From NCBI GenBank assembly GCA_965213675.1, contig OZ243916.1:3648001-3712000 (forward strand): a stretch of DNA of 64,000 nucleotides, read 5' to 3'. A model generated the notes under the pieces. It was not told where the DNA came from. It saw nothing but the letters and a program-made list of their open reading frames with translations, and made no database searches. The position numbers and the translations under genes were made by a program. Shown piece by piece: positions 8,057-64,000 of the stretch; within the stretch, counting starts at the first letter, position 1, and every line of letters begins with the position of its first letter. This stretch comes from an uncultured Candidatus Binatia bacterium. Lineage in GTDB: Bacteria > Desulfobacterota > Binatia > UBA9968 > JAJDTQ01.

Positions 8057-8143
8057 GGGTATGGCGCACGCATCGTCAGACTCCGAAGACCGCGGCTCGA
8101 AACCGTGGATTCAGGCGCCGGGCCGCGCGCTGCCGAGGTTCGG

Positions 8144-8167
8144 GCGCCAACCCGTTGGGGTTGGCGC
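8144..8167. other. 10-bp perfect stem-loop in the intergenic region
   Basis: GCGCCAACCC-GTTG-GGGTTGGCGC. There is no U-tract. Confidence 0.45.
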
Positions 8168-8233
8168 TGCGTCCCCCGGCCGTTCTCGGGTCGGCGTCAT
8201 CCGGACCGGGACGGCTCAAGGGAGGGAATCAAG

Positions 8234-9274: not shown

Positions 9275-9388
9275 GCGGCGAGCCCGGTCGCCATTGCCGT
9301 AAATCGCGCGTCAGGAGTGCGCTTCCCCACCGCGATCAGGAATAACCGGTGGCTGGCAAGACCACCCTGCTGCCGCCCAAGGCCAGCG

Positions 9389-10483: not shown

Positions 10484-10506
10484 GCGAACCCGTCGCGACG
10501 GCGGCG

Positions 10507-11379: not shown

Positions 11380-11508
11380 GGAAACCTCCTTTTGCCCGGA
11401 TGAAGCGTTGCCACATTCCGGTCGCGTTTCATGTCTCTCCGTAGCCAAGTGTTGCAGGGACCCGTCCTGTCCGGGTGCGTGGCATGTCCGACTGAGCGGG
11501 TCGGGCCG

Positions 11509-12426: not shown

Positions 12427-12767
12427 GGCGTCGCTCCCTTGAAGCGCCTTGAAGCCGCGCCGTGCGCGCTTCGCATGACCGCGCCCGGTTGGCGCGGCGC
12501 CGGTGCCTTTACGGTACCCTTACGGTATACACCAGCCGTGATTTCCCTGCGAATTGCCGGCCACGCCCGGCGGCGCGTTCCCCGCGTTGTCCACAAGGCT
12601 ACGGTGATTCCCGCTTGGGACATCCGGCCGTGAACCGGAAAGCCGGATGGGCGCTGGCCTTGGGCCAGGAGCTTGCGCCGCAAGACCGAACAGGAGTAAA
12701 TGGGAACGAATACGGGGCTGGAATCCGTCCCGCCTCATCCACCAACCGCGCGCGCCGGGAGGAGTCC

Positions 12768-27173: not shown

Positions 27174-30100
27174 TCACCAGCGTATGGTGAACTCGATTCC
27201 GATGGTGTGAGTGGGCGGGGCGGTGTCGCTTTCGTTGCGCGTGGCCTCGATGCCCAATGAGAGGTCGAGCCCGATGCCGCTGGCCGCCGGTTCCAGGCGC
27301 CAGCCCATGGCGTATTCGCGCGAACCGGCGGCGAGGCCGAGGCTGACGTGGGGAGTCCCGATGAAGCGTCCGTCATGGACGGGAATGCCGTAGGCGGCTT
27401 CGGTGGTCCAGCGGGCTTCCGCCTGGGTTGCGGTGCGCTCGGCGAGGGGGTCTGGGGTGAACAGCGCGTCCATGCCCCCTTGGGCCTTTCCGCCGCGCTC
27501 CTGGCGTAGGGTGAGGGAGGGGCCGAGCGGGGTGGACGGGTTGGGGTCGTAGGTCAGCCTGGCGGCGAAGCCATGGTCCTTGAGGTCGTTGTCGCCGTGG
27601 GCCAGCAGGGTGCGGCCCGAGACCTCGAGGCTCAGGCCGAGAGCGGGACTGCTCCAGGCGAGGCCGCCGCCGAGTTCCACGCCCATGCCGGTTTCGGCAT
27701 CGCCGCCGTCATGCCGCGCGCCGATCTCCAGTCTGGGGGTGACGTGGGCGCCGCGGTCCAGCGCCACCCGCCAGCTTCCCTCCAGTCCCATCCGGAGCCG
27801 GGTCACGTCGGAGTCCGAAGCCGCCAGATGCGCGGTCTTGTCGGATGAGGTCCGCGCCCACAGCGCGTCGGACAGCAGCGCCAGCCCCAGGCCCGGCTTG
27901 CCCCGAGGCGTGAGGTCGCCGCGGAAACCCAGCGACGCCATGGCCCAGGACAGATTCGACTCGTACTCGCCGGCAACCTCGGGGGTCAGGCGGAGCTTGC
28001 CCGCGCCATAGCCTGCCGCGCCCCAGAGCTTCAGCCGTTCCGAGACCTGGACGGACCCGTAGGGGACCGCCCCGGTGAGCGTGGCCACGACCTTGCCGTT
28101 GCCCGCCGGCAACGTCCCGTGGCACAGCCCCGGTTCATCCGCGCCGCAGACCCCGAGACCGGCCCTCCCGCCGGTGTACTTTCCCGCGCCCTGGCTGTGG
28201 GTGACGGCCAGCCCCACGATCCACGGGCCCCGGGCATAGTCCATCCCGAGCATTCCGGTGGTGACGTCGCCGTCGAGGGAGAAGGTTCCCTCCCGTCCCT
28301 TGAAGGCGGCTTGTTCGGCGTCGCCCCAAACGGCCATGCTGGCGTCGTTCCCGTCCGCGCCGAGGGTGACGGTAAAGTGGCTGCCGGCGATCAGTTCGCG
28401 CAGGGTCAGAGGGCGCCATGAAGCGGGCGCGCTGGCCGGATCGCGTATGTCGCCGTAGCCAGGAAGGTGGCCGCCAAGATGGCCACCCAGATGGCCGCCC
28501 AAGTGGCCGCCGAAGCGCCCATCCAGCGGGTCGCCAAAGACGCCGCCCCCGGACCCTGATCCGAGGCTCAGGGCCTGTCCCCCAAGGACCGCGCTGGTTC
28601 CGGAGGCGCGGGGCGCGGTCAAGCGCCGGGATATGCCGTCCAGGGCCTGCTGGGCCACGGTCCGGCCGAAGCGGCTGAGCCAGGCCTTGGGCATGGGGTC
28701 GGAGTTGACGATGGTCATCACGCCCACGCCCCGGCCCATGGCCGCGCCTCCGGTGGGGTTCGACAACGCTACCTCGAAGGTTTCCGCCTCCTCGTCGTGG
28801 GAATCGTCGCGCAATACCACCGGAATCCGCTTCTCGGTCTCACCGGGCGCAAAGGCCACCCGCTGGCTCCGCGGCCAGTAGTCGGCGTTCTCCCGCGCCG
28901 ACACCGGATGCGATTCGCGGGTGGCGTACGACACCTGAATCGTGCGCTCCGAAGCCGGACTGAGCCGGATGGCAAACCACAGCGTGGTCTCGTTTTCGTG
29001 CGCCGAACCGTCTTCCACCGAAAGGGTCGGGCCTGCCGGCTGTGTCTGGTCCGAAGGCGCGGCTTCGGCGGTATTCGCCGCTTCGATTTCACCAAGCGCC
29101 TGGGCCACCTCCACCCAGCGCTCCAGGCCCTGATCCACCAATGCCTGCGCCTCGGCCGCCGTCATGGGGGTGAGCGCGCTGTCCTCCACGCTCTCGCCGA
29201 AGGCCAGCAGCGCCCGGTCCCAGCGGTCGGTGTGTGCCGTGTATGACCGCCACGCCGGATCGTTCCGCCAGTCGTACATCTTCGCGATGAGCGCGGCGTA
29301 AGGACGCGCCGGCGCCACATCGAGGGTCGCGGCGCCGGCCAGGCCGTCGAGCAGGAGGGTGTCGCCGTTGCCGTCCTCGTAGGCCGGCGTCACCGTTACG
29401 GTGAGGGTCATGGCCTCCATGACGTCATGTCGAAAAGTCCACGCGGTCGCGGTCACGCCGTTCTCGTCGCCGTGGACGTGGGAAGGCGGCCCGCTGTCGC
29501 CCTGGCCTTGGTATTCCACCCGGTAGGAAGTGGCGTGCGTCACCGCGTCCCAGGTCGCGGTGGCGCTGGCACGGTCCACCGCGTTCACCTGGACGTTGGA
29601 AACCGCCGTGACGGGAACCGGGACCGCGGAAGCGCGCTGCGCCTGCTGCTCCGACCCGTCGAGTGGGTCGGGCGTGGACCGGTCATCATCAATCATCGAG
29701 CCTGTCGCCAGGTCGTCCGCGATGGTGGCGCCCGTTGCCCCCGACAGCACCACGCTGAAGCTCTCCCGTTCCTCTTTATGAGAATCATCCACGGTCTCGA
29801 TCCGGATTGCCCGACGCTCCTGCCCCGGACGGAAGGTCAACTGACCGCTGCCGGCGACGAAATCCTCGCCGGCCACCGCGTTCCCGTAGCTCGGCCCGTG
29901 GGTATTGCTGTCCTGGTTGAGATTCGGTCCCGTGCGGGTCTCCCAGTTGACGGTCACCGTTTGCGCCGTTGGTCCGGATAGTCTGACCGGCAAGACAATA
30001 TCGTCGCCCTCCCGCACCCCGTGGTTCCTGATGGAGAGGGTCGGCGTCGCGTCGTCGTCCTCCACCGCCACCTTCGCCGAGGCCGGGTCGCCCACGCGGT

Positions 30101-33100
30101 AGCCTTTGCCGCTCTTCACCGTCGCCTTGACGCTGCCGTCGGGCTCGTCGGTGATGTCGTCCAAAATGAGGGCGCCGTAGAAGGTCGTGGAGGTCTCGCC
30201 GACCTCGAGCCGGATGGTGGTGTCGCGGCTGTCGTAGTTCAGCAGGAAGTCCTGCCCGTCGCTGGTGTCCTCCGACACCGTGACCGCCACCTTCAGGGCC
30301 TCGCGGCCGCTAGCCGCCGGGGTGGCGTGCAGCGTGAACTTGACCCCGTCGCCCTCGGTGACCGTTTCCTCCTCCGTCGTGATGGTGACCACCGGGGTGG
30401 GGTCGGGGTCGTTGTCCATCACCCGCACCGTGGCGCCCGACGGGCAGTTGCCGGCTTCGCCGTCATAGGTTTTGCCCGGATCCATGCCGGCGTTCCCGCC
30501 GATGGTGTATTCCTGCTCGGGGTAGTGGGGGCCGACCCAGGCGCAGTAGTCGTAGTAGCCGGATGCGCGGAACACCTTGTCCTCGGTGGCCTCCACGTCG
30601 AAGGTGACCTTGTTGCCCACGCTCACCAGGGCGCCTTCGTACCAGTACCCGGTGCTCCAGGGCACCCTGACCCTGACATTGATGAAGAACGGCTCGAGTT
30701 CGCCGGGCAGCACGCTGGGGTCGAAGTGCAGCGTGAACACCGCGGGCTGGCCCTCCTCCACCTGCCCGCCGCCGGTGATGGTGACGGTGGGGCCGGGCAC
30801 ACGGTCGTTGATGGTCGCGACCGCGTCGAGGGGCGTTCCGGCCATCACGCCGGCCGGCAGCAGGCTGTCGATGATGTCGATCCGGAACGTCTCGCCCGAG
30901 TCGTCGATGCCGTCCCGGACGATCGCGATGTCGACCGTCGCGCTGGTGCTCCCGGCCGGAATCGTCACGTCGTAGTTTACGCCGGAATAGTCCACGCCGT
31001 TGCCGGTCGCGGTGAGCGGGGTCAGCTCCACCCGCACCGTGGTGTCCACCCCGCGCGCCCGCGACAGCCTCACCCGCACCTGGAGCGTCTTGCCCTCGTA
31101 AGCCGTATAGCTGGCGGACGACAGCGACACGCCCGGCGGGTCCTGGATGTTGAAGATGGCGAGGTTGTCGGTCAGGCTGGAGCCGCCGCCAAGGCCCGTC
31201 CGGGCCACCGAATCGAACCCGATGTCCACCGTCTCCTCGGGGGACTCGGCCGTGCCGTCGTCGGTGGCGCTCAAGGTCAGGGTCGCGACGGTGGCGGTGG
31301 CGCCGGAGCCCGGGCCGGTGAAGGTGATCCTGGGGTTGTTGCCGCCGAGATCCACGTAGCTGACCCCGGTCGCCGCCGTGCCTGTCAGGGTGTAGTCCGT
31401 GCCGCGCGTCGCGGTGCCGTGGAAGCTGAGCGCCGCGGTCAGCACCTCGCCCTGCACGAGGCCGCGGCTCAGGGTCAGGGTGATGGTCTTGCTTTCGCCC
31501 TCGCCCACCTTGCCCGCCGCTCCGGCGAGGGTCACGCGGGTGGCGTCGTCGTCGGTCACGGCCAAATCGACCGAGGAGGTGCCGCCGAGCGAGTAGCCCG
31601 TGCCGGCCTGCAAGGCCACGGTGAGCGTGCCGTCGGGGCGGTCCACCGAGTCGTTGTTCACGTTCACGTCGAACTCGGTCGTGGTCTGGCCGGCGGCGAT
31701 GGTGATGTTCGCGCGCGACAGGCTGCCGCCGTAGCCGCTGCTGAAGGTGAGCACCGGCAGCGTCACCCGCAGGCCGCCCGCGGGCGCGGTCTGGTCCGAG
31801 GTCACGGTGAACGTGGCGCTGCCGCCCTCGGCCACGCTGGTGTTGCCGTCCTTCTCGGCGAGCGTCAGCACCGGCGCGTCGTCGTCGATGATGTTCGTGC
31901 TCGCCGACGTGGTGGCGCCCAGCGTGTAGCCGTCGCCGGGGCGCAGCGTGACGGTCACCGTCCCGCTGTTCTCCTGCAGCGCGTCGTTCACCGTCGGCAC
32001 GGTGTGCGTCCCCGAGCTGGCCCCGCTGATGGCGAGCGTCTTGGCGCCTTCGTTGGCGGTGGTCACGAAGTCCCCCACGGTGCCGCCCGTGGTTTCGGAC
32101 ACGTCGAGATGCACGGTCACCGTGCCCGAAGCGGACAGATTCACGTCGAACGCCGCGCCCGTGCCCTCGTTCACCGACGCGCTGCCGGCGCTCACCGTGG
32201 CCGTGGGCGGCGTGGCGTCATCGTTGTTGATGGTGTAGGTGGCGCTCCCCGCGGACGAGGAAATGTCCACCCCGCCGGGCGCGCCGCGCAGTTCGAGCAC
32301 CGCGGTCTCGTTCGCCTCCGCCGAGCTGTCGCCGATGATGCGGAGCTTGACCTCGGCGCGGGTGTCCCCGGAAGCGAGCGTGTGGCTGTAGCAATTGCTG
32401 GCGTCCACGGTCAGGGCGCTGCCGCCGGCGTTCACCAGATTGAAGTCCGCCGCCTGGGCGCCGTCGGCGCTGCGGAAGGTGGCCGTGCCGGTGTCCTTGA
32501 CGCAGAGCTTGAATGCGGTGGCGGCGGCGCGGGTTTCGCTCAAGGACAGCGTCACCGCCACGTCCGTGTTGCCCGAATGGCCCTCGGCGCCGGAGGCCGA
32601 CGCGAGGCTCACGGACAGCGCCGGGTTCGGCGCCTCGTCGTCCTCGATCTTGAGGCTCGCCATGTAGTTCGACGCATGGCGCTCCACGCCGCCGCTCACG
32701 GTGGTGCCGAGGCCTGCGCCGCGAAGCACGCTGTCGGTGGCCAGCGTGGCGGTGAGCGTCTCATCGGCCATCTCGCCGTCGTCGCGGCCCGCCACCGGGG
32801 TGAGCGTCACTGTCGCGTTTTGCACCATGTGGGCGTCCTGGCCGGTGAAGGTGAGCCTCGGGCTCGCAGTACTGGCGTTCGCAAGGCCCACGCCTCTGCC
32901 CGCCGCCGCCACCGTGAAGTCGTGGTTGGCCGTCCCGGGCAGCCGCGCGCCGGTGCTTGTGGCCAGCGTCAGCGGCGCCACGATGACCTCGCCGTCGTAC
33001 AGGCGGCGGGACAGCGCCACCGTGAGCGTGGCCGTGTCCGAGGCCTTGCCTTCGGCCATGAAGGCGTCCGAACTCGTGAGTTCCACCGCCGTGGACTCGT

Positions 33101-36100
33101 CGTCCGTGATGCGCGCCGTGTCTGAAGGGCCGGTCGTCGATACCCGGTAGGCGCCCGCGTTGGTGCAGCCCGCCGCGTCCGGCGCCACCACCGCCACCGT
33201 TACCGAGCTGTCAGGGTCGTCCGCCGCCGTGTTCGTCCAGGTGAGGTCATGCTCACCCGCGCCGTTGGCGTTGCCGGTGCTGGTCATGGAGACCTTCTGG
33301 ATGCCCTCGCTCCCCGCCGCCACCCGGTCGCCACCGCTCTCGGTTACCTGCACGCACACCGTCAGGGTGCTGGGCAGCGCCCGGTCGGCGCTCAAGTCGA
33401 ACGTCACCCCGGCGCCGCCTGCGCTCTCCCCGTGAAGCTGTTCGCGCGCGGCGTTCCGTGTCGCGCCTCCCCCGCTGGGCAACGCCACCGAAATGATCGG
33501 CTGCAACCCCTCGTCATCCACAATGCCGACCGTGAGGTTCTTGTTCTGCGAGGCGCCGTAGCCGCTGCCCGCGCCCGACACGGCGTGGGCGAGGGTGACC
33601 GTGTCGTCGGTGTCGTCGTTATCCTCGGCGGCCGAGAGCGACACCGTCTGCGGCGTGCTCCAGATGGCGCTGCCAGCGGGAGTGAAGGTGAGGGTTTCGC
33701 TCGCCGAACTGCTCGTGCCCGCGTCCGGCCCGTCCACGGACAGGTCGCTGCTGGAGTGTCCGCTGATGGTGACCGTCACGTTGGCCAAAGGCTCCGTGGC
33801 GAGCGCCACCGTGTAGCTGCCCGTGTCGCCCTCGCCCATGGAGACGGGGTCCGGGGCGATCACCAGCCCCTTGGTGTCGTCGTCGGTGGCCGTCACCGTG
33901 ACGGAGCCGATGCTCAGGCTGGTGACGTATTGGCCGCCGGTGTCGCCGGTCTTGACCGCATGGGTAATGTTGGCGGTGCGATTGGAAGCCTGGTCGATGT
34001 CGTCGTTCTGGCCCTGGATGGTGAGGGTTTGCGCGGTGTCCCAGTTGGACGGCGTGAAGGTCAGGTCCTCGCTGTTGGTGTAGGTTGTGGCCCCATCGGG
34101 GCCGTCGAGCTTCACCACCGTACCGTCGCCGGAGGTCACGGTGATGACCACGTTCGACAGCGGCTCGCTGTCGAGTTCCACCGTGTAGGTTGCGGCGCCG
34201 CCGTTTTCCGCCACCGTGCGCGTGGTTTGGGAAACGCTCACCCCTGCCGTGTCATCGTCGGTGGCCGTCACCGCGACGGAGTTGATGCTCAGGCTGGTGA
34301 CGTATCTGCCGCCGGTGTCGCCGGTCTTGACCGCATGGGTAATGTTGGCGGTGCGATTGGAAGCCTGGTCGATGTCGTCGTTCTGGCCCTGGATGGTAAG
34401 GGTTTGCGCGGTGTCCCAGTTGGACGGCGTGAAGGTCAGGTCCTCGCCGTTGGTGTAGGCGGTGGCCCCATCGGGGCCGTCGAGCTTCACCACCGTGCCG
34501 TCGCCGGAGGTCACGGTGATGACCACGTTCGACGCCGGCTCGCTGTCGAGCTCCACCGTGTAGGTTGCGGCGCCGCCGTTTTCCGCCACCGTGCGCGTGG
34601 TTTGGGAAACGCTCACTCCTGCCATGTCGTCGTCGGTGGCCGTCACCGTGACGGAGCTGATGTTCAGGCTGGTGAGGTATCTGCCGTTGGTGTCGGGGGT
34701 CTTGACCGCATGGGTGATGTCGGCCGTGCGGTCGGAAGCGTGGTCGATGTCGTCGTTCTGGCCCTGGATCGTGAGAGTTTGCGTGGTGTCCCAGTTGGAC
34801 GGCGTGAAGGTCAGGTCCTCGCTGTTGGTGTAGGTTGCGGCGGAGTCGGGGCCGTCGAGCTTCACCACGGTACCGTCGCCGGAGGTCACGGTGATGACCA
34901 CGTTCGACAGCGGCTCGCTGTCGAGTTCCACCGTGTAGGTGTCGGTGCCGCCGTTTTCCGCCACCGTGCGCGTGGTTTGGGAAATGCTCACCCCTGCCGT
35001 GTCGTCGTCGGTCACGCTCACGCTCACGGTCCCGGCGCTGGTGATGGTGTAGTTGCTGTCGGTGGATGTCGTCGCGTGGCCGATGATCACGGTGCGGCTG
35101 TCGCCCGCGTTGTCGATGTCGTCGTCCACGCCAGTCACGGTGATGGTCTGCGCCACGTTCCAGGTGGAGGTGGTGAAGGTCAGCGTCTGCGCGCCGCCGA
35201 CGGTGCCGCCCGACTTGTTCACCCGGGTGCCCGCTCCCGCCGTGACCGTCACGGTCACGCTGTGGGTGGGCTCGGTCCTGAGCTTGATGTCGTAGCTGTC
35301 GGTGGTGGTGGCGCCGTCCTCGCTCACCGTGGTGCCGGCGCCTGACTCGGTGAAGACGAGTCCGTACGGGGTGTCGTCGTCCCGGATCACGTGGGTCGCC
35401 GGGTTGCCGTCGGTCTCGACCTCGAAGGTCGCCGGCAGGGCGGTGGTTGCGCTCTCCTTCAGCGTGACCGTCACCCTCTCGTCGTTTTCGATGTCCATTT
35501 CACCGAATACCCGGATCTTGTACGTGTGGCTGTCCACGCTCTGGGCGAAGGCGACCGTGCCTTGCGCGCCCACGCAGCCGAGGGTGCTGCCCGAGCCGAA
35601 GGTGGTGACCGTGCCGCTGCCGTCGATGTCGATGATGCGGTAGTCCTCGCCCGCCGCCTGCGTACCGTCGGCGTCGAGGGTCGCACTGCCGGAGAAGCAG
35701 AGGCTGTACGACACCGCCGGGCTGCCGGCGGGCTTGGCCACGACCACATTCACGTCGCGGGTGCCGGAATCACCCTCGTCGGCCGACGCCGAGGCCAGGG
35801 TCAGGGCGAGTTTGTACCTGTCGTCGTTGGTCAGGGTCACGGCCACACCGGGGATGGTCGGCGTGCTCGGGGTGTAGCGGCTGCCGTCGCCGTTGGCGGC
35901 CGAAGCGATTGTGTGCGTGACCGTGGCGGTGCGGTCCGGCGCGTTGACCACGTCGTCGTCCTGGGCCTCGAGGGTGATGGTCTGCGCCGCGTCCCAGTTC
36001 GACGGCGTGAACGTCAGGTCCTCGGTGTTCGTGTAGGTCACCGCCGGGTCCGGGCCGTCGAGCTTCACCGCCGTGTCGTCGCCGGAGGCGACGGTGATGA

Positions 36101-39100
36101 CCACGTCGGACAGGGGCTCGCTATCGAGCACCACGGTGTAGGTGGCGGTGGCGCCGTCTTCGGCCAGCGTGCGCGTGGTCTCCGACACCGTCACCCCGGC
36201 GGTGTCGTCGTCGGTCACCCGAACGTCCAGGCCGCCCGCGTCGTCGATGTCGTAGCTCGCGTCGGTGGAGCGGGTCGCGTGGGCGATGGTCACGACGCGC
36301 TGATTGTTCTCGTTGTCGACGTCGTCATCGACGCCGGTCACGGTGATGGTCTGCCCGGTGCTCCAGACGCCTGCGCCGCTCGGTGTGAAGGTGAGCGTTG
36401 CCGTGGCGCCCGCCGTGCCGTCCGCCGCGTGCACCCTGGTCCCTGCGCCGGCGGCCACCGTCACCGTCACGTCGTGGGTCGGCATGATGTTCAGTCTTAC
36501 CGCATAGCTGTCCGTGTCGGTTCCGTCCTCGCGCACGACGGTGCTGCCGCCCGTCGGCACGAAGTGGACTCCGGCGGTGCCGTCGTCGTCGGTGACGCTC
36601 ACCGTCACATCGCTGATGGACGGGGCGTCCGCCGTGTAGCGGCTACCGTCGCCGGTCTTGATTGCGTGGGTGATGGTGGCCGTGCGCCGGGAGAAGTTGA
36701 AGTGCTCGTCGTCCTGACCTTCGAGGGTGATGGTCTGCGCCGTGCTCCAGTTCGACGGCGTGAAGGTCAGGTCCTCGGTGTCGGTGTAGTCGGTCGCCGA
36801 GTCCGGGCCGTCGAGCTTCACCGCCGTATCGTCATCGACAGCGACGGTGATGACCACGGGCAACAGCGGCTCGGAGTCGAGCACCACCGTGTAGCTGGCG
36901 GTGCCGCCATCCTCCGCCACCGTGCGCGTGGTCTCCGACAGGGTCACCCCGGCGGTGTCGTCGTCGGTGACGGTCACCGCCACCTTGCCGGCGTTGGTGA
37001 TGGTGTAGCTGTTGTCGCTGGAGGTCGCCGCGTGGCTGAGCTCCACGGCGCGCGCGTCGCCCGCGTTGTCGATGGCGTCGTCCACGCCGGACACGGTGAT
37101 GGTTTGCGGCGTGCTCCACAGATTGGCCCCGGCCGGGGTGAAGGTGAGGGTCTGGCCGGCGCCCGCGGTGCCGCCGGACGTGTTCACCTCGGCGCCGGCG
37201 CCGGCGGTCACCGTCACCGTGACGTCGCCGGCCGGCTGGGTGTTCAGCGCCACGGTGTAGGTGTCGGTGGTGCCGTCCTCGCCGACGGTGGTGCCGCCGC
37301 CCGACTCCACGAGGCTCACACCGGCGCCGGGCGTGGTGTCGTCGTCGGTCACGCTCAACGTCACCGCGTCGATGGCGATGCCGTGGTAGGGATTGCCGGT
37401 GTCGGCGACGGCGGCGCTGTGCGCGAGGGGCACGCTTTCGCTCACCGTGTCCGCATCTTCCACGGCGCGCACGGTCACGGTCTGCGCCGTGCTCCAGAGA
37501 TTGGCGCCGGAGCTGGCGAAGGTGAGCGTGGCGCTCGTGCCCGCCGTGCCGCCCGGCGCCTGCACGGTCACGGCATCCTGGTGCGACGCGGGCACGCGCA
37601 CCGTCACCGCCACGTCCGCCACCGGGTCGGAGTCGAGCACCACGGTGTAGGTGCCGGCCGCGCCGGCCTCGGTGAGGCTCAGGCTGCTCGCCGACAACGT
37701 CACGCCGTCGCCGTCCGGGTCGTTGTCGACGATGTACACGTCCACCACGTCCCGCACCTCGTGCTGGACGAGGCCGACGGGCGGATAGTCTTGTATGGCC
37801 TGGATTCTGAATCGCTCGACGCCTTCGGTCAGCGCGTCGTCGACCAGCTCGACCGTGAGCGTCGTCGAGGTGTCGCCCGCTTCGAAGGTCACCTTCTCGG
37901 GCCACTCGAAGGCGGGCTTGTAGTCCGTCCCCGACGTCGCCTGGCCGGGCGCGCCGACGGCGGCGGGACCGCCGGCGGGGAAGGCGCCGGCATCGTCGAA
38001 ATAGCGGAACCGCACGCCGGTGTCGCGGCTGAGCGCCCGCGACAGGTTGACCTCGAGCTTGACGCTGTCCGCCCCCTCCGGCGCCCGCACACGGTCGGCC
38101 ACGGCGAAGGTCACGAGATATTCATCGTCCACCACCGTGGTCTCGATGCTGTGGTCGCTCGCGTCGCGGGTCACGTCGCCCACCGTGGTGTCGGGGTCGG
38201 CGGCCAACGCGGCGTCGCTGCCGAGCGCGACGGTGACCGTCTCTTCCCTCGGCGTCTCGAGATGGTCGTCGATGGCTTCGAGGGAGAGTTGCACGGCGGC
38301 GCCGCCCGCGCCTTCGCCCTCGAAGACCAGGGTGGGGCTGAGCGTACCAGCGCCCTCCAGGCGCACGCCGGGGTCGGCGGCGTCCTCGTCGCTCACCCAC
38401 TGGAGCCCGTGCGGGAAGTCGTCCCGAGTCACGTCCGCGCCGGAAATCACCAGCGGCACATCCACCCGCTCGCCCGCGCGCAGCGCCCGGCTCAACGCGA
38501 CCGCGAACTCGATGACGCCGCCCGCAATGTCCCGGTCCCGCCATCCGGTGCCCTCGTCGATGCGCGCGGCGCCGCCGGTGCGGGTGAGCGAGACCACGAT
38601 GTCGGAGTCGTCATCGTCGATCACCCCGGTGGCGATGAGGCGAAGCCCGCCGCCCGGGAGCACCGCGTTGGTGGGCTCGGAAAGGAACAGCGCCACCGTT
38701 TCGTCGCTCTCGAGCAGGGTGTCGCCGATGACCTCGACGGTCAGGGTCTTCTCGGTCTCGCCCGGCTGGAAGGTGAGCGTGCCGGGCGGCACGGCCACGT
38801 AGTCCGTCCCCCGCGTGGCGGTGTCGTCGGGGTCGATGTTCCCGTAGTCCACCGTGACGGTGTCCAAGCTCGCGTGGGAGAGGGTCACCGTGAAGTCCAG
38901 GTCGGCGGTGGCGCTGTCGCCCTCGTCGACCCGCCCGCCGCGCATTCTCAGCTTCGGGTCGCTGTCGAGCACATCCAGCGTGATGAGGGGCACCCGCGGT
39001 CCAACGAACCCGGCGTAGTTGCCTTTCCCCTGCACGGTGTTTCTGAACGTCGTGGTGCGCTTCCCGCTCGGGTTGTCCTTGCCATCGTCGACCCCGGTCA

Positions 39101-54100: not shown

Positions 54101-57100
54101 GCCAGGCTGTCGGTCGTATCCACACCGCCGGCAAGGCCGGTGGGCACGAGCGTGCCGAGGCCGATATCGACGGTTTCCGGCGTCGCCTCTTCCGTCCCGT
54201 CCCGGACCGCCGTCAGGGTGAGGGTAGCGGTGGTCGCCGTCGCCCCGGAGTCCGGGCCGGTGAACACTACGCTCGCCGTCCCGCTGTCGAGCTGGTTATA
54301 GGCGACGCTGGCCGCCGTCGCACCGACCAGGGTGTAATCCGTGCCGCGCACCGCCGTGCCGGCGAAGGTGAGCGGCACGGTAAGCGCCTCGCCCTGCACC
54401 AGCCCGCGGTCGAGGGTCACGGTAATCTCCCGCGTCTGCCCCTCGCCCAGATCGCCCGAGGCGGCGGCGAGCACCACCCCCGTCGGATCATTGTCCGTAA
54501 CCCGTACGACCAGTTCGCGCGCCTTCTGGTGCTGGAACCTCACATCCGCCGAAGTGGCCGTGTGCGTGACCGACACCGTCTTGCCCGGGTCGTCGGCCGG
54601 ATCGTCGGTCGCCGTCAACGTGACCGTCTGGCCCGTCCGCCAGTTCGACCGGGTGAAGGTGAGCGTCTTCGTCGCCGCCTGCGTCGGCGAGCCGGCCGTG
54701 CTCACCCTGGCGCCATCGCCGGCGGCGACCGTCACCGTCACATTCTGCGAGGGCCGTCCGGTCGAGCTGTCAAACTGCACGCGGTAATTCGCCGTCCCGC
54801 CCTCGGTCAGCGCCAGGCTGCGCGTGGAGACCACCAGCTTGTCGGCGTCGACCACACGAAAGAGCGCGCCGCTCTGCCGCCGGTCGGGCTCGAGGCCGCC
54901 GCCGAGATTGGTCAGCGCGGCCGAGGCCAGCCCGCGAAAGTTCACCGTAATGTTTGCATCGGTGCTGTCGTTGGGAGCCCGCTCGGCCCGGGCGGTCAGG
55001 TGCAGGGTGGCCGACCGGGGCGTGTCGGTCCCGCCGGTGAACTCCACGGCATAGACGGCCACGTTCGGCGGTGTGCGTTGCCCGGTCAGTTTGCCGCTGC
55101 TCGGGCCGAACAGCCACACGCCCTCGGCGAGCTTCTGGGTGTCGGCAGCGAGCGCGGCACTGTCCGCCCCGTCGGCGTGGACGATCACATCGCGGCGATT
55201 GGCCGCACCGGAGAGAAAATCCCTCGCCCCGGTCGCGAATCGCAGCTGCACCAGCGCCCGCTCGCCGGCGACCAGCTCCCGCCCCAGCTCCACCACCAGC
55301 ACACCGGTTCGGCTCTCCACGCCCTCGGTCATCGAGCGGGAACCGCGGAGCGCCACGGGGGTCGGCTCGTCGTCGACCACCTCGATGCTGCCCGCGCTCC
55401 GGTCCGACACCCGGTAGCCCGTGCCGGTGGTGGGGGTCACCGTCAGGGTGCCGTTCGGCGCATCGCCGGCCACATCGATGCTCGCCGCCGTGATCTCGAC
55501 GCTGCCGCTGGTCGGCACCACCACCGAGCCCGTCGACGCTGCCGCATGGCCGCGCGTGCCCGACACCTGGTAGTTCACCGTCACCGGCGCGGCCGGGGGC
55601 ACGAGCAGACGGACGGTGAAGGTCGCCGCCGTGCCTTCGGGGACCGAGTCCTGCTTCGCCTCGACCCGCACCTCCGGCGTTTCATCGTCGAGCAGGCGGA
55701 GGGACGTATCGGTGAAGGTGGCGCCGGCCAGGGTCCCGGTCAGGCTGATCGTCTCTTCCGGCTCGCTCAGGGAATCATTCACCGGCGCCAGCGGGAACTC
55801 GACATAGCCGCTCGTTGCACCCTGGCGGAGGGTGATCGTCTGATCCGGAACATTCGCGTAGTCGGTGACCTCCTCCGCACTGTCGCTGGCCTCGCCCACC
55901 CGCACCGTCACCACCTGGTCCGTGTCGAACCGGGATCCATCGTCGATGGTCGCCGTCACCCGCACCGTCTTCGTCCCGCCATTCTCCCGCACGGCGTCCT
56001 GCACGCCGGCGCTGTCCGTATCCGCATCCACCGTCAGGGTGATGGCCGACGGCGACCCGTCATCGTCCACCACCACCACACTCGCCCGGTCGGAATCGGC
56101 GCCCACCGCATAGCCGGCGCCGCCGGCAAGGGTGACCGAGATCGCGCCCGCGGCCTCGGTGGTGGTGTCGTCATCGGTCTCGACCGCGATCGTCGCCTGG
56201 TCCTCGCCGGCCTTCAGGATCACCTGCCGGTTGCCGGTCTGCCCCGCCGCCGCGACATCGCCTTCCTGCGCGACGCCCAGCGCCACCATCAGATCCCGCG
56301 CCGGGGCGAAGTCGGCGCTCAGCGTGAACTCGGCATCGTTGCCCTCGCTCACCTCCGTCCCCGCCGCGCGCACGCGCAGCGTCGGCTCGGCCCCGTCGAT
56401 GAGCACCTTCGCGACGGAGCGACTCACATCCACGGCATAGCCGTCGCCCGGGAACAGCGTCGCCCGCACCCAGCCGTCGGTCTGGTGGCTGTCGTTCTCC
56501 TCGGTCTGGATCCGCAGCGTCGCGCTCGCGCTGCCGCCCGCCAGCACCAGGCTGTACTCCCGAATCGCGGTCGCGGACACATAGCTGCCCTGTTGCGTGA
56601 CGCGGACCTTCAGCGGCAGGTCGTTCTCCACCGTGGCATCGGCGCCGAAGGTGAACACCACCGTCTCGCCCTCATGCACCGACGCGGCCGCCTCGACGCC
56701 GACCGTCACCGGATCGTTGTCGACGATCTCCACCTTCGTCGCGGCGCTCGCGCCCACCTTCGTATGCGCCCCCGCCGTCAGCACCAGCGTGAAGTGCTCC
56801 TCGAAGTCCGGGACATTGTCGTCCAGTGCCCCGACCGTGATCACCTGCCGGCTCGCCCCGCCCGGGGCGAAGGTCAGCGTGCCGCTCGCGCCGCTGTAGT
56901 CGCCTTCCCCGGCGGTGTCGCCGTCGCCGGCCGGAGCAAAGGTCACCGTCGCCGGCAGCAGCGAAGTGGCGCTGCCGCCCTGCGCAACGACGACCCCCAC
57001 CGTGCCGCCCTCGCTCACCCGGTACTGCCCGCTCTGGAAGCCGTATTGCGGCAGGTCGGCGTCGTCGATGATGGTGCCCACCGCCTCGTAGTCGGTGGGG

Positions 57101-60100
57101 TGCAGCGGACCGTGGGTGGATGAGACCAGGCGCACCGTGAACCGGTGGTCCGACTCGTAGACATTGTCGTCCACCGTCGGCACCGAAAGCGTGCCGCTTG
57201 TCCGCCCCTGCGCAATCACGACCGCGCCGCCACGCGCCCCCCGGAAATCGTCGGGCGCCGTCGCCCGGGAATACGCCGCACCGCCCGTGCCCCCGGCAAT
57301 GGTGTAGCGCACCGCCACGCCGCCCGCCGGCGCCGCGTTCGGCAGCGTCACCGTGAATACAAGCGCCTCGCCCTCCGCCGCGGACGCGTCCGAGAGGGCG
57401 ACGCCCACGTCGTTGTCGATGACCGTCAGCGTCGGCGCGCTGCTCGCGCTCGACGCCGTCACCGTGCCGGTCAGTTGCGTGGCAAGACCGGCGTCGGACA
57501 GGTTGCCCAAGCTGACCGTGAAGGTGTCGTCCGTGCGGTTGCCGTCGTCCCGGCCGGTCGCGCCGAGCTGGACCTCGGCCACCTGCTCGCGGCCCGCGCC
57601 GCCAGTGAAGCGCACCTTTGGCGCCGTGGTGGCCGCATCATGCAGTGACACCCCGGCGCCGGTCGCCGACAGCACCTGGATATGCGGCTGGGATTGCCCC
57701 GGCAGCGACAGGGCGCTGGTCGTCGAGAACGCCAGCGGCACCTCCACCACTTCGCCGGCCACGAGGTCGCGCTCCAGCGTCACCACCACCGACCCCGTGT
57801 CGCCCGGCGCCTCCTCGAACAGGCGCACATCGCTGCCGCCCGTGAGCGCAACCGTGAACGGGTTGTCGTCGTCGAACAGCGTCAGCGTCGCCACGTTGTC
57901 GCCAGCGGCTGTGGTCACCGCCTCGCTCAGGTTCGTCGCCAGCCCGCCGGCGGCGAGGTCGCCGAGCCCGACCGTGAAGGTGTCGTCGCTGGTATCGCCG
58001 TCGTCCTGATTCGTGGCCGCAATCTGCACTTGCGCGACCTGCTCGGTGCCCGCGCCGCCGGTGAAGCGCACCGTCGGCGTCGTGGTGGTCGCGCCTTGTA
58101 ATGTCACGCCCGTGCCGCTCGCCGACAGCACCTGAACGTGCGGCTGGGACCCGCCCGGCAGCACCACGCCGCTCGTTGAGGCGAACGCCAGCGGCGCCTC
58201 CACGATCTCGCCGGCCGCAAGGTCGCGCTCCAGCGTCACCGTCACCGATGCGGTGTCGCTCGGAAGCTGCTCGACCACGCTCAGGTCGCCGCCGCCCGCC
58301 AGCGACACCTCGAACGCCTCCTGGTTGTCCACCAGCGTCAGCCTCGCCTGATTGCTGCCGCCGGTCGCCACCGCGCCGCCCGACACCGTCGTGCCGAGCG
58401 TCGCGGCGGCAAGGTCGCCGAGCCCGACCGTGAACGTGTCGTTCGTCAGGTTGGCGTCGCGGGTGGCGGTCGCGGCCATCTCGACCGTGGCGACCCGCTC
58501 GGTGCCCGCACCGCCGGTGAAGCGCACCACCGGCGCCGTCGTGGACGCGCCTTGCAAGGTCACGCCCGTACCGCGCGCCGTCACCGCGATGTGCGGTTGC
58601 GCCGCGCCCGGCAGCGCCACGCCGTCGGTCGTTGCAAAGGCCAGCGGCACCTCCACCACCTCGCCCGCCGCCAGGTCGCGCCCGAGGGTCACCGTGACCT
58701 GGGCCTTGTCGCTCGGCGTCTGCTCGCGCAGGCGCAAGTCGCCGCCGCCCGCGAGCGATACCGGGGTCGCGATGTTGTCCGCCACCGCAACGCGCGCCGA
58801 CGCGCCGCCGTAGCGGGTCGCGAGGGTCGCTGTCACCGCGCCGTCTGGACGGTCCTGGCCGAAGGACTTCGTGCCCACGCTGAACCGCTTGCTGCCGCCC
58901 GCCGGCACGATGACCTTGCGGGTGAGGAACTGGCCGGCGGCCACCACATCGCCGCCATCGTCGATGCTCACCTCGACCGCCACGTCGCCGCCGAGGGCAT
59001 TGGTCGCGCTCACCGTGAATGCGGCAGGATTGCCCCCGACCACACTGGCCGCGGCCGGCGCGACGGTGAACGCCGCCCCGGCGATGCGCGCCGGCGCCGC
59101 GCCCACCGTCACCCCAACCAAGGCGACGCCGCGGACCGTTCCGCCGGAACCGCCGTAATTGCTGTCGGTCGAGGACACCTCGTGGCTCACCGTCGCGCGT
59201 CCCGGCGAGAGCCCCGACACCGCAATCGTCTTCTCCGTGTTCCACTCGTTCGGCTGGAACGTGACCGCCGCACCCGCCTTGAGCACCGCGCCGCTGTCGG
59301 TCACCCGCGGGGTGAGGGTCACCGCATGGGTCGGCCGGCTCTTCAGGCGCACCGTGTACTCGGCCGAGGCCCCTTCGGACACCTGGAGCGCGCGCGTCGA
59401 TGTCATCACCCCGTGCCCGGCGTCGCGGTGGGTGACGGTCACAGCCGGCGCGCTGGACACGCCCGGGTAGCCGGTCACCGCATGGGTGAGGGTGACGTTG
59501 CTGCCCTGAATCGCATCCGCGTCGGGCAGGGCGGTGACCTCCACCGCCTGCGCCTCGCTCCAAATCGTCTCGCCGCGCGTGGTGAAGGTGAGCTGCGCCG
59601 GTTCAACCCGCACCCGGCCGGCATCGCCGGAGGTGATGTCCACCGTCACCGTCTGGCCGGGGTCGCTGCCGAGCCAGAGGTGGTAACGCCCCGGCGGGCC
59701 GTTCTCCACCACCGTCATGGCGGTCGGGCTGACCCTCACCCTGGGGGTGCCGTCGCCGGGCGCCACCTTGGGCGCCACCTTGTCACGCAACTGGATGAAC
59801 GCCGCGCCGCCCCTGGGCACCGTGCCCGTAGCCCCCGTGCCGGTCTCCCGGTCCAGGTTGCTGTCAATTGTGCCCATCCACAGCGTGAACGCTTCCCTGC
59901 TCTCCGCCGCGCCGTCCTCGATCGCCGCGAGCGCCAGCGTCGCGGTCGTCACCGCGGCATCGTCCGAGCCGGTGAATACCACCGCAGGCTGGTCGGCGCT
60001 GTACGGCGGCGAGGCGGAGAGCGATACGCCGCTGCTGCTCGCGCCGGCATCAAGGGTGAGCGTGTAGTCGTCGCCGTCCACACCGGTGCCGGCCACGGTG

Positions 60101-63100
60101 AGCGGCACCGTCACCGTCTCGCCGGCGAGCAGCCCGCGCCCCAGGGTCACCGTCACGCGCGTCTCGTCGCCCTCGACCAGCTCGTCTTCGCCCGGAACGG
60201 CGAAGGTGACCGGTGTCGGATTGCCGTCGATGACCGTCACCGTCGCCTCCGTGCCCTTGGCCAAGGTTGCGGGAAAGCCGCTGCCGAAGCCGACCGTCAG
60301 GGTCTCGTTCTGCTCATCGGTATCGTCGGGCAGCACGAACAGCCGGACGGTGTGCGCATAGTCGGGCGCCCGGAACGCGATCCGCGCCGGCAGGTCGAGC
60401 CGGTAATCCGCCGCGTTCACCCCCGACACCGACAGCAGATTGGCCGTGTCCACCAACAGCCGCTGCGTCGTCGCGCCGGTCACGCTCAGCGTGAGGTCGG
60501 CCCACTCGCCTTCCGCCATGACATCCCCTGCAAGCGACAGGTTCAGCACCGGCTTCGTCGCCGCGGCCACGGTCACCGACACCGGATCGATCGACAGGTC
60601 CGTGCCATAGCCGCCGCCCGCCGCGTAGGTCACCGCATGGGTGACGTTCACCGGACCGCCGCCGGCGACGCCCTCGACGGTGACGGTTTGCGGCACCTGC
60701 CAGTTCTCCGCGTCGAACACCGCCCACTTGGCACGAGTTCCTTCGATGGCCTTGATGCCGACCACCTTGTCGTCATCGCTCGTGGGCGTGATTGCCACCG
60801 CACCCACAGGCTCGCTCGTCAGGCGCAGCGTGTAGCTGTCCTCCCCGCCGCTTGTCACCGTGACCGCGTTGGTGCCGACCGTCACCCCGGCGGTGTCGTC
60901 ATCGGTCACGGTGACGCTGACGCTGCCGGCGTCGGGAATCGCGTAGGTGGCGTCGTTGGAGGTCGCCACGTGGGCGATGGTGACGGTGCGGGCATCGCCC
61001 GCGTTGTCGATGTCGTCATCGACGCCGGTGACGGTGATGGTCTGCGCGGTGCTCCAGATGCCGCTGCCGGCCGGCGTGAAGGTGAGCGTCTGGGTCTTGC
61101 CCGTCGTGCCGCCCACGGTGTTCACCTGCACGCCGTCGCCGGCGGTCACCGTGATGGTCACGTTGGCGGTCGGCGCGCTGCCGAGTTCCACCGTGTAGCT
61201 CTCCGTGGTGGTGCTGCTGCCGCCGTCGTCGCTGACGATGGTCTCGTCGTCAGACTCCTTGATGATGACGCCGGGGGTGAAATCGTCGTCGGTGATGGTC
61301 ACTGTCGCCGTGCCCGTGGAGGTGGTGCCCTCCCTGCCCATGACCTGTACAAAACTGTCGTCCAATTCCCGGTCGAGGTTGCTCATCACCGCCCGGTTGC
61401 GTTTGCCGAAGTCCACCGTGAGCGCTTCCGAGCTGCCTTCGTTGTCGGCGTCCTGCTGCGCGGTGACGGTGAGTGTCGCGACTTGCACCGTGTTCGAGTC
61501 TTGACCGGTGAACACCACCGCCGGCGCGGACGCGCTGTGCGGGGCGCTGGTGCTGAGCTTGACCCCTGTGTTGACGCTGCTGCCGGGCTTCAGCGCGATC
61601 TCGTAATCGGATGCGGTGATGCCCGTGCCCGACACGGCGAGTGGCGCCGTCACCGACTCGCCGGCGATGAGGTTGCGGCCCAGGGTCACGGTGATGTCGG
61701 CCCCGTCGCTGCCGTCCTCCTTCACCGTGCCGGCGCCCGCCAGCGTCACCGAGGTGGGGTCGTCGTCGTAAATCGTGAGGGTGGCCGTGGTGCCCGCCCG
61801 AAAACCCGGAGGCAGGTTCTGCCAGCCCACCGTCAGCGTCTCGTTCGACTCGTCAACGTCGTCGTCGTTGATGTCAAACTTACTGTTGTCCGTATAGGGA
61901 TGGGAGAAAGAGTGGTAATTCACCCTTGATGCGAGCGTATAGTCCGACTCGGTGACACCTTCGCCAGTGATTGTCAGCCTACTCGTTCCCCCCGGCAGAA
62001 TGAACCCTGACGTGGCGCCGGTGGCCGTCACTAACAGATCGGTAGAAGCCCTGTTCGGCCTGTGCCTGACGCGTGTGTTCAGCGTTTCAGAGACTCGGGT
62101 GGACTGAAACCGAAGATCCAGCACCTGGCGCGTATCGACAGTGACCGTGACGCTGCCGGCGACGGCGATGACGTAGTTGCTGTCGGTGGAGGTTACCGCG
62201 TGGCTGATGGTGGACGAGCCGTCCTCCTTGCCGGTCACCGTCACCGCCTGCGGGATGTTCCAGTTGCTCGTGGAGAAGGTCAGGGCGCCGGACACCGCGG
62301 CGTTGGCCGCCGCGCTCGAGGTCGGCGTGACCGTCACCGGGTAGTTCGGCCGGCTCTTGAGCACGACCTCGTAGGTCTTGGCTTCGTCGCTGCCCTGCAC
62401 CGACAGCATCGATTCGGACAGAATGACCCCGTGGCCCGCGTCGGTGGCGGTGACGGTCACGTCGTCGATGTCGATCCCGTGGTAAGGATTGTTGTTGTCC
62501 GAGGCCACGGCCGCGGCGTGGGAGATGATGACGGTCTCAGTCGCCACGTCGCCGTCGTTTACGGCGCGCACCGTAACCGTCTGCGGCTCGTCCCAGTTGC
62601 CGGCGTTGCCGTCGGTGAAGGTGAGGGTGCTCTGGTTGCCCGCCATGGCGCTGTCGGTGTCCACTTCAACGACGCTGGGGTCGCGGGAGGTGACGGTCAC
62701 GACCACTTCCGCGCCGGGGTCGGTGTGGAGCGCCAGCGTGTAGGTTTTCTCGGCGTCGGTGGGGTGCAGCTCGGTGAGCGCGAGGCTCGCGGTGGAGGGC
62801 GTCACGCCGTCCGTGTCCTCGATGCTGAATTCGTCGAGGCTGTCGGTCTCGCTCGTGCCGCCGTCGAGGCCGGTGCTCGCGAGCGTGCCGAAGCCGATAT
62901 CGACGGTTTCCGGCGTGCTCTCCAAGGTGTCGTCCGCCGCCGCGGTCAGGGTGATGGTGGCGGTGGTCGCCGTCTCGCCAGTGTTCGGGCCGGTGAAGAC
63001 CACGTTGGCAGCGCCGCTGTCGAGGTTGTTGTAGGCGACGCCGTCCGCCGCGGCGCCGGTCATCGTGTAATCCGTGCCGCGCGTCGCCGTGCCGCCGAAG

Positions 63101-64000
63101 GTGAGCGGCACGGTCAGCGTCTCGCCGCTGACCAGGCCGCGGCCGAGGGTGATGGTGAAGTCCCGCGTCTGGCCCTCGGTCAGGTTGCCCGAAGCGGTGG
63201 AGGCGAGGGTGACGGTGGTGGGGTCGTCGTCGGTGATGGCGACGGTGATGTCCTCGATGATCATTCTCTCGAAACCGCGGGTTGTTTTGTGGGTTATCGT
63301 CGCAGTGCGAGGGCCGCCGGGATTGTCAATGTCGTCGTCCACTGCGCTGACGTCGATCTTCCTGGGACTGCTGAGCCCATCTGAAAAGCCGCCGAGCCCA
63401 GTGAAGTTCAAGGTTGCCGTCCCCGCCGGTTGATTGCCGCCGAAGGACACCTGCAGCCCTTCACCGGCGGTGGCGATAAAATCCGTTATAAGAAAAGGGT
63501 TGGCTTCCACCATCTGCACCTGATAGGAGTCCGTCGCGCCCGATTCAACCACCGCGGTGGAACCGTCGGACTCGGTCAAAACCACGCCATCGTCGTCAAG
63601 AATGTTGATCGTCAGTGTTGGGTTCGCACCCCTTTCCACGCCTGTGTCCAGGTTGATGATCCTGGCTAAGATGCGCTCTAGTCCTTCAAGGATGTCGTCA
63701 TCGACCGTCATGACCGTCGCGCTGGCGGTGGTAGCGCCTGCGGCAATCGTCAGGCTGAAGTCTGCGTGTTCCCCATTGATCGGGTCGCCGGTCACCGGGT
63801 CAACAAAGTCTGCAGCGACAGTGGCGTTGTCGCCTAGCAGCCAGATTTCAATGGGGGTGTCGGTATCGCGCGCCTCGGAGAGCTCGACGGTCACCTGTAG
63901 TGATTCGCCCTCCTCGACATCGGCACTTTCCTCGGTGAAGGAGACCGTTACGATATCGTCGTCGTGAATAATGAGAGATGCTGTCGACGCCGAGCCTACC
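27174..64000 (-). CDS. Giant Calx-beta/Ig-like repeat surface protein with C-terminal autotransporter-type beta-barrel; 5' end outside the window; one frameshift at 49212
   Basis: ORFs 49084-63894 and 27174-49235 join into one frame if G49212 is removed, and the frame stays open to the window end. It has dozens of ~110-130 aa Thr/Val/Asp-rich domains ending in xDDD/xDND and canonical Calx-beta motifs (ATxGxDY...GTLTFxPGETEK...DExF). The C-terminus has WLSRFGRTVA followed by amphipathic strands ending in IEFTIRW. Confidence 0.9.
28464..28511 (-). repeat. 4 x 12-nt imperfect tandem repeat encoding (GGHL)4
   Basis: Protein reads RFGGHLGGHLGGHLGGHLPG; the copies differ only at synonymous positions. 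Confidence 0.9.
33874..34998 (-). repeat. 3 x 375-nt (125-aa) near-identical tandem repeat inside the giant gene
   Basis: Units start at about 33874, 34249 and 34624. Each encodes AGVSxSQTTRTVAENGG...DSEP.SNVVITVTSGDGTVVKLDGPD...TATDDD. Confidence 0.92.
46500..60905 (-). repeat. Large internal direct duplication: about 46500-53305 and about 54088-60905 (offset ~7.59 kb)
   Basis: Matching sequence at a near-constant offset (46753/54341 and 49009/56597 = 7588; 51284/58871 = 7587; 52668/60267 = 7599). The protein translations are near-identical. Confidence 0.93.

Follow-up and report, generated by a model that had tools for sequence, protein, structure and literature searches.

Autotransporters are known as self-sufficient exporters of passengers of moderate size, mostly β-helical, which leave through a 12-strand barrel. 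The giant type I RTX adhesins LapA, SiiE and MpIBP are instead megadalton rods, acidic and nearly Cys-free, made of tandem Ig-like modules of the Ca2+ type, while intimin and invasin, the inverse autotransporters (type Ve), have an N-terminal 12-stranded barrel. Repeats at the 5′ ends of surface-protein genes are familiar as well: Neisseria opa genes carry CTCTT repeats in the signal-peptide codons and Haemophilus lic has several ATGs in different frames. Here we describe a giant gene from an uncultured Candidatus Binatia bacterium that resembles each of these systems in part. We analysed a 64,000-nt stretch (G000:C1:3648001-3712000, hereafter the window), which lies on a 3.97-Mb contig free of N, in a genome of 4.53 Mb and 21 contigs. 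In the reading that we favour, and consider probable, its minus strand carries one 38.8-kb gene for a type V (autotransporter-like) surface fibre, and a tract of short repeats at the 5′ end may switch its translation.

A first-pass annotation of the window had described one giant minus-strand frame at 27174-64000. Its arithmetic (36,826 nt minus one base, giving 12,275 codons with the stop included) is correct and the very long reading, open at the window edge, is there, but it is broken into two frames. By translation table 11, an upstream open reading frame (ORF) of 5,644 aa in total, 4,971 aa of which lie in the window (49084..64000, listed as 49084..63999+, minus strand), overlaps by 152 nt a downstream ORF of 7,353 aa in a different frame (27174..49235, minus strand), which holds modules and the barrel and has no signal peptide of its own. 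The annotation had proposed to look for the start codon and signal peptide on the upstream contig, and both were found on the same contig: the upstream ORF runs 674 codons (2,018 nt) past the window edge to an in-frame ATG at G000:C1:3714018 (L009:3018), and a Sec-type signal peptide follows. The stop codon is a TGA at 27174..27176 (minus strand). The whole gene measures 38,845 nt and, if read through with X at the break, encodes 12,948 residues. The read-through product has a mass of 1,317 kDa and an isoelectric point of 4.26, with 13.6 % Thr, 8.4 % Asp and only 12 Cys.

We located the break by comparison with an intact internal paralogous copy. One extra base in GAG[C]GAGC lies at 49208..49215 (minus strand), in the context TTCGAG[C]GAGCAC; the internal copy, 7,587 nt upstream in the gene, is without that base and reads uninterrupted ...DDNVPDFEEHFTLVL..., and the two regions are 98.3 % identical over 601 nt. 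The break falls inside a repeat module, as the last upstream module ends at profile position 76 of 85, which argues for one gene interrupted and not for two genes by design. Judged from these comparisons, the locus is one gene interrupted by a 1-nt insertion.

The passenger agrees with the earlier description of a Calx-beta repeat protein of more than 1 MDa. Four pieces of the protein scored 36.1, 119.2, 73.8 and 155.7 bits with PF03160 (Calx-beta), all above the gathering cut-off of 27. The module array (28722..64000, minus strand) has a period of about 110-130 aa and runs past the window edge, and an iterated self-built profile counted 92 modules in the whole gene, 41 in the upstream and 51 in the downstream ORF. 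A profile of 45 modules matched the Calx-beta domains of Na/Ca exchangers in PDB (E 3.5e-8 to 2.3e-6); taken singly, 11 of the 45 modules matched Pfam Calx-beta and six matched the Pfam LapA domain. There are a few non-repeat stretches (150-240 residues) within the protein, and the N-terminal one (209 aa) recovered unnamed clusters only from the ESM Atlas, with scores of at most 0.90 and low recognition. The passenger is thus an array of about 92 Calx-beta-like β-sandwich modules, very acidic, rich in Thr and Asp and nearly Cys-free.

The C-terminal region begins with an α-helix, KAWLSRFGRTVAQQALDGISRRLT (28617..28688), in the stretch ...KAWLSRFGRTVAQQALDGISRRL..., followed by a linker (28413..28556) and a predicted β-barrel (27177..28343), all on the minus strand; the protein ends ...GIEFTIRW and then TGA. 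The last Trp (W508 of the C-terminal 508 aa) is nearly invariant in a 45-sequence alignment, which gives the barrel an aromatic β-signal. Using this alignment, AlphaFold2 modelled the 508 residues with a predicted local distance difference test (pLDDT) score of 80.2 and a predicted template modelling score of 0.73. The helix lies at model residues 5-28, and DSSP assigned 18 strands on the model between residues 120 and 507, most of them with pLDDT >90. A single-sequence model (pLDDT 32.4) was dropped in favour of the alignment-based one. The best six of 48,161 PDB representatives were the type Va translocators NalP, EstA, Hbp, AIDA-I, AaaA and EspP (Z 16.9-14.8), aligned over 226-245 residues with a root-mean-square deviation of 3.4-6.5 Å, and all six alignments start at model residue 1 and include the helix. 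The NCBIfam autotransporter barrel TIGR01414 matched a short stretch with 21.5 bits (cut-off 16, E 1e-4). PF03797 matched six of the 45 close homologues (best E 9.1e-13), one homologue, P0135, 49 % identical to the barrel domain, matches it at 49 bits, and some homologues are named 'autotransporter outer membrane beta-barrel domain-containing protein' by NCBI.

Several results weigh against a simple assignment to the autotransporters. No Pfam family, PF03797 included, matched the last 508 residues at E<=10. In the model, a stretch of about 390 residues holds about 18 strands, and an insert of about 90 residues separates the helix from the first strand; we know of neither in type Va barrels. 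FhaC and TamA were structurally nearly as good as the six best matches (Z 14.8 and 14.1). Foldseek against PDB placed 22- and 26-strand barrels on top, at template modelling (TM) scores of 0.29-0.40, and BrkA reached a TMt of only 0.52, while a search of the PDB sequences with the family profile returned nothing at E<=1. Going by the model, the C-terminal domain is a barrel related to those of autotransporters that exceeds the classical ones by about 130 residues and probably has more strands than their 12. Because PF03797 failed and a count of 12 strands probably fails too, we file it as an autotransporter-related variant rather than as a plain type Va member. The autotransporter-type barrel of the first-pass annotation was in this way retained on TIGR01414 and the PDB matches but found no support in PF03797, and in place of the 12 strands to be tested for, the model has about 18. 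The linker ahead of the barrel is rich in Gly and His (model residues 49-96, pLDDT <50), and its low-confidence segment of about 50 residues, variable across the family, contains the in-frame repeat (GGHL)x4. To our knowledge, classical autotransporters have no such Gly-rich insert between helix and barrel.

Compared with the type Va proteins NalP (1uyo), EstA (3kvn), Hbp (3aeh), AIDA-I (4mee) and EspP, the giant protein is alike in having a signal peptide, a single polypeptide, a C-terminal helix and barrel with an aromatic end and no partner genes nearby, as none were seen among the 38 flanking ORFs scanned with Pfam. It differs in its passenger, which consists of about 92 Calx-beta β-sandwiches and not of a β-helix, in its length of 12,948 residues, several times the usual size, and in the barrel features already described. 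Size, acidity, few Cys and tandem modules, six of 45 of which match the LapA domain, are shared with LapA, SiiE and MpIBP. Those have a type I signal and an N-terminal retention module, whereas here we found a Sec signal peptide and a C-terminal barrel anchor, and Pfam, searched at E<=0.01, reported neither RTX nor HemolysinCabind in any of the four pieces. On these grounds we rejected type I (RTX) secretion, in agreement with the first-pass preference for type V. With intimin and invasin the protein shares a tandem Ig-like passenger shown from an outer-membrane barrel, but its barrel is larger and C-terminal. In its working the protein would come closest to a type Va autotransporter, and in its looks to the giant type I adhesins.

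At the 5′ end, just outside the window, lies a (GAGCC)31 tract of 156 nt (G000:C1:3713837-3713992). The order of elements at the gene start is GAGGGG-N7-ATG GAA TTA ATG CTC AGT CCA CA ATG, then (GAGCC)31, then the codons for RRVGLSENLRDVIPAKAFATLGVALVLLAGWTPWTEA|Q, so that the tract has three ATGs, in two frames, on its upstream side and the signal-peptide codons on its downstream side. Two of these ATGs, which precede the tract by 17 and 26 nt, share the frame of the gene when read through the 156 nt; the third, which abuts the tract, does not. In the present phase the ATG at 3714018, with GAGGGG ahead of it, is in frame; the other two phases of the tract run into stops shortly after it. The signal peptide was recognised by inspection as ...AKAFATLGVALVLLAGWTPWTEA|Q, its stretch ...LRDVIPAKAFATLGVALVLLAGWTPWTEA|QTS lies at L009:2728-2796, and the paralogues share the layout. 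Three points at this end tell against the reading: the signal peptide was assigned by eye only, it comes after a leader of about 75 residues that includes the repeat-encoded (SRAEP)n, and a consensus scan found no canonical sigma-70 promoter upstream on the gene's strand. Two readings of the start were discarded. GAGGGG-N7-ATG together with a far-upstream ATG (MTAQNN...) was considered as a conserved N-terminal peptide, but the paralogues show no coding-type substitution pattern there, and a CTG considered as a start within the conserved 'NLRR' is replaced by CCG in the same-genus orthologue.

If the frame is intact in the cell, the product would first be exported across the inner membrane by Sec, its barrel would be inserted with the help of the β-barrel assembly machinery (BAM), and the unfolded passenger would be threaded outwards from the C- to the N-terminus. 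The modules would fold one by one outside the cell, probably with Ca2+, and supply the pull. With a module size of about 4 nm, some 95 modules would give an anchored rod of about 0.4 micrometre, which may serve in adhesion to host matrix or to other cells. Such a protein raises the question of how a barrel that is translated last exports a chain that has waited unfolded in the periplasm for many minutes, and whether a wider barrel solves the export of a 1.3-MDa passenger of about 92 modules. As a GAGCC unit of five bases does not fit the triplet frame, slipped-strand mispairing that adds or removes units would switch translation on and off.

The most serious alternative is that the gene is a decaying pseudogene, in which the 1-nt insertion is real and has inactivated it in the sequenced population. 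As assembled, the frame is broken and no single polypeptide joins the signal peptide to the barrel; with a genuine extra base, the encoded protein could not function in the way set out above, and both points count against the fibre. The locus would then yield an unanchored Sec-exported fragment of 5,644 aa and a signal-less fragment of 7,353 aa, at best made separately, and the activity would reside in the intact paralogues. The 152-nt overlap of the frames and the position of the shift inside a module fit this explanation. Contigs of four public runs that contain the locus list no indel at the break; these runs come from one study with two samples, are possibly the source data of the assembly itself and gave short contigs, and a contig bridging the exact base is unconfirmed. 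Among the same-genus genomes searched, no barrel is more than 60 % identical to that of the giant gene, so no orthologue turned up there that would show conservation. Against decay, no further stop occurs in either half (16.9 and 22 kb), so the inactivation would be very recent, or the extra base is an assembly or consensus error. This copy of the giant gene is either inactivated or mis-called at the extra base. That the frameshift is real seems to us somewhat doubtful, and we regard a pseudogene as a serious possibility to which we nevertheless incline less than to a working gene. A second family gene is also broken: the paralogue at G000:C1:793304-800722, outside the window, has (ATCGCCGG)45 at its 5′ end (repeat at C1:800358), in frame with an upstream ATG, and a single frameshift about 1,030 nt past the repeat, about 1 kb into the coding region, a pattern that also fits decay within the family.

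The tract of the giant gene is one of a set. Taking simple repeats of at least 20 nt and at least 4 copies, we counted eight in the 4.53-Mb genome, five of which are at the 5′ ends of genes ending in the barrel: (GAGCC)31 at the giant gene, (ATCGCCGG)45, (ATCGCCGG)32, (ATCGCCGG)11 and (GTCGAGCC)8. Short 5′ repeats were present in none of the nine other family genes checked in this genome. In other same-genus genomes, long repeats were found in 4 of 20 family 5′ regions: a poly-C21 before a 10,794-aa gene, a 7-mer x30, a (GAGCC)6 and a poly-G32 (may be unrelated). Copy number differs in a paralogue: the closest one has 32 x ATCGCCGG here, where a same-genus genome with a 91 % identical RpoB has 21. 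We also examined five further genomes, labelled publicly as Alphaproteobacteria (two), Gammaproteobacteria, Ca. Poriferihabitaceae and Nitrospirales, for four of which RpoB was measured. Long repeats were found at 16 of 20 family 5′ ends, all 16 in the four genomes whose RpoB is 58-59 % identical, and at neither of the two family 5′ ends of G044 (Nitrospirales). None of 20 control regions 100 kb away had one. The repeats are tied non-randomly to the barrel family.

The units in the distant genomes are largely the same, namely ATCGCCGG, GAGCC, GTCGAGCC, GGTCGCCG and poly-C, in 10-68 copies. The 5′ coding region of one paralogue (G000:C1:2407646-2408511) is 81.8 % identical in DNA to L152 of G043 over 876 aligned columns, and the leader of the same paralogue is 90 % identical to another gene of G043, although the RpoB of G043 is only 58 % identical. 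Such DNA identity in the face of so divergent an RpoB suggests recent horizontal transfer of the 5′ cassette, and near-identical cassettes at 58-59 % RpoB identity point to active gene exchange within what appears to be a sponge habitat. Taken together, the repeats suggest both on/off switching and horizontal spread. Each ATCGCCGG unit (e.g. at G000:C1:2407385-2407645) contains GATC and CCGG, which are common methylation sites, and a long ATCGCCGG tract is a dense array of possible methylation targets beside a promoter-like element. Among the only three long simple repeats outside the barrel family, one is a poly-C of 22 at G000:C1:399035-399056, between a LuxR-type regulator-like ORF and a small signal-peptide ORF, and it is a candidate switch.

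In several respects the tract resembles the contingency loci opa, lic and uspA2: a long repeat with a unit length not divisible by three stands at the 5′ end of a surface-protein gene, upstream starts occur in two frames, and in a paralogue the copy number differs between related genomes. It differs from them in its GC-rich 5-, 7- and 8-mer units with up to 68 copies, which recur at 58-59 % RpoB identity, and here the switching is predicted from sequence. The leader that follows the repeat evolves like a coding sequence, with substitutions at codon positions 1/2/3 of 12/7/24, 20/9/25 and 11/7/21 and gaps mostly in multiples of 3. In 15 of 25 loci, the giant gene included, there is no main-frame ATG, GTG or TTG between the repeat and the hydrophobic core, so translation in these loci would have to come through the repeat. 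The giant gene and four G042 loci have an ATG immediately next to the repeat.

The rival to switching is that the 5′ repeats tune expression without any change of frame, the transcript starting downstream of a TTGACA...TATAAT promoter so that the repeat belongs to the 5′ untranslated region (5′UTR). It would act through the length or structure of the 5′UTR, through DNA methylation (the 8-mer unit carries GATC and CCGG) or through protein binding; Moraxella uspA2 with its 5′UTR repeats and E. coli antigen 43 with its Dam/OxyR sites are the precedents we would liken it to. Several results speak for this rival and against frame switching. TTGACA and TATAAT-like hexamers, promoter-like and 20-23 nt apart, are conserved upstream of the repeat, exact TTGACA with TATAAT or CATGAT being retained just upstream of it at 58-59 % RpoB identity. 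The segment upstream of the repeat shows flat substitution counts over the codon positions (6/8/6 and 14/10/12), with no coding pattern and with gaps that are not multiples of 3. In 9 of 25 loci, an ATG, GTG or TTG lies within 10 codons after the repeat, which places the repeat in the 5′UTR there. Finally, of the 15 loci that lack a start after the repeat, an upstream start is in frame in only 4, as chance (one third) would give. On the other side, the hexamers are 20-23 nt apart where standard sigma-70 spacing is 16-18 nt, and the consensus scan gave no promoter on the gene's strand. Nor does a 5′UTR agree with the 15 loci that lack a start downstream of the repeat despite a leader that evolves as coding, or with the ATG abutting the repeat in the giant gene and the four G042 loci. 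We lean, by a modest degree of confidence, towards frame switching as the likelier mechanism for the giant gene, and hold an effect through the 5′UTR to be possible but rather unlikely. Exact TTGACA with TATAAT or CATGAT, 20-23 nt apart, was seen immediately before the repeat at L009:3023-3028, L144-L161, L124 and L126, distant genomes included.

That the size itself is due to the assembly, with mis-joined or over-expanded repeats lengthening a shorter gene, we consider very improbable: the gene does hold many related modules and a 6.8-kb internal segmental duplication by self-megablast (copy 1 at 54083..60906 and copy 2, containing the frameshift, at 46495..53304, both minus strand), and the short-read-type contigs of the public runs fragment to 0.2-1.3 kb within it with many short-sided joints, but the repeats are diverged (6,840 nt at 91.3 % identity, then 764 nt at 92.9 %, and the remaining ones at most 93 % over less than 1.1 kb, except the 601-nt stretch at 98.3 %), the 3.97-Mb contig has no N, depth was found in all 30 bins of the 17.8 kb compared in four of four runs, and at least nine further genomes of the genus, most of them in 1-4 contigs, have open frames of 5,550-19,556 aa that likewise end in this barrel. 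The public-run contigs are too short to probe long-range structure. Their joints with sides of 20-21 nt were considered as deletion variants and rejected, since repeats produce such joints.

Relatives of the same genus contain frames of comparable length. Same-genus open frames ending in the barrel reach 19,556, 13,810, 13,176, 12,456 and 12,450 aa, and a further one in a same-genus genome has 6,743 aa. We took four 20-kb pieces from the giant genes of three relatives (open frames of 10,794-19,556 aa), and each was a single open frame with 33-51 module-profile matches. Giant open frames in relatives show giant size to be a trait of the genus and not an accident of assembly. At G006:C1:1039457-1246272, in the same genus, at least five barrel-ending open frames (11,496, 8,046, 3,182, 13,176 and 19,556 aa) lie within about 200 kb, and those of 13,176 and 19,556 aa are directly adjacent. 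In the genome of the window itself, a second giant family gene of 6,749 aa, intact and without a 5′ repeat, lies at G000:C1:1529596-1549845, outside the window.

The giant protein is thus not singular and belongs to a very large, multi-copy family. An HMMER search with the C-terminal 508 aa against 1.84 billion cluster representatives (at 50 % identity) gave 6,886 matches at E<=0.001 and 2,633 at E<=1e-30. Among the 150 matches listed, the barrel lies at or near the C-terminal end of proteins of 515-7,300 residues, and a few records look cut short. The family is mostly annotated as hypothetical, and no paper in the library searched was found to treat it. The genome of the window holds 21 barrel matches, among them ten full-length paralogues 48-100 % identical and four more full-length ones at 31-39 %. 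The barrel was found in 16 of 18 same-genus genomes searched and in one of 12 genomes of other families of the order. The labels of barrel-bearing genomes include Ca. Binatia, Alpha- and Gammaproteobacteria, Nitrospira, Acidobacteria, Gemmatimonadota, Dadabacteria, Ca. Poriferihabitaceae and Ca. Porisulfidus. Several of these genome names point to an association with sponges, as do isolate codes of the kind used in sponge-microbiome studies. In the genome of the window, the named homologues of a housekeeping gene near the giant gene carry the label Candidatus Binatia.

Sponges have Calx-beta proteins of their own. The aggregation-factor proteins of the host (PMC11670116; see also PMC5400394) are rich in Calx-beta and serve in adhesion and allorecognition. 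The likeness to the bacterial fibre lies in long extracellular Calx-beta arrays, in the habitat where the family appears concentrated; the aggregation factor consists of eukaryotic secreted proteoglycan components, and the likeness noted here is one of domain type. Interaction with the sponge aggregation factor, or mimicry of it, is a speculation at this stage, and the common domain type offers a testable idea for how symbionts are retained. A wider scenario, which we put forward as a conjecture and consider unlikely in its entirety, is that apparent sponge symbionts of several phyla share by horizontal transfer a cassette consisting of a promoter-like element, a hypermutable repeat of 5, 7 or 8 nt, a long conserved leader and a signal peptide. 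The cassette would drive Calx-beta fibres whose length runs from 1,400 to about 19,500 residues, exported through a new, enlarged type V barrel subclass of about 18 strands, and the repeats would switch the fibres, giving each cell a changing subset on display. By engaging or mimicking the Calx-beta aggregation factor of the sponge, the fibres would hold the cells in the mesohyl or save them from being eaten. The 5′ repeats would be a first indication of phase-variable surface display in uncultured, apparently sponge-associated symbionts.

In the library searched, nothing combines Calx-beta, autotransporter and sponge, and the papers listed under Calx-beta and autotransporter describe no such protein. 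Nothing relevant was found on giant autotransporters or phase variation in sponge symbionts, and a paper on sponge-associated Binatota mentions none of these terms. What is new here is the size of 12,948 residues together with the break, the statistical tie between repeats and family with its control, the identical units found in distant genomes, the analysis of coding patterns in the leader and relatives of up to 19,556 residues.

Regarding the surroundings of the giant gene, a scan downstream of its stop found no terminator. The flanking ORFs that could be named by Pfam are metabolic or transport proteins (TctC, SBP_bac_5, gamma-glutamyltranspeptidase, DHDPS, amidohydrolases and PrpD). At 8105-13787 of the window, two TctC-type solute receptors, an NMT1-like binding protein and an SBP_bac_5 protein lie amid amidohydrolases and a gamma-glutamyltranspeptidase, a transport-rich metabolic neighbourhood that is apparently unrelated to the giant gene.

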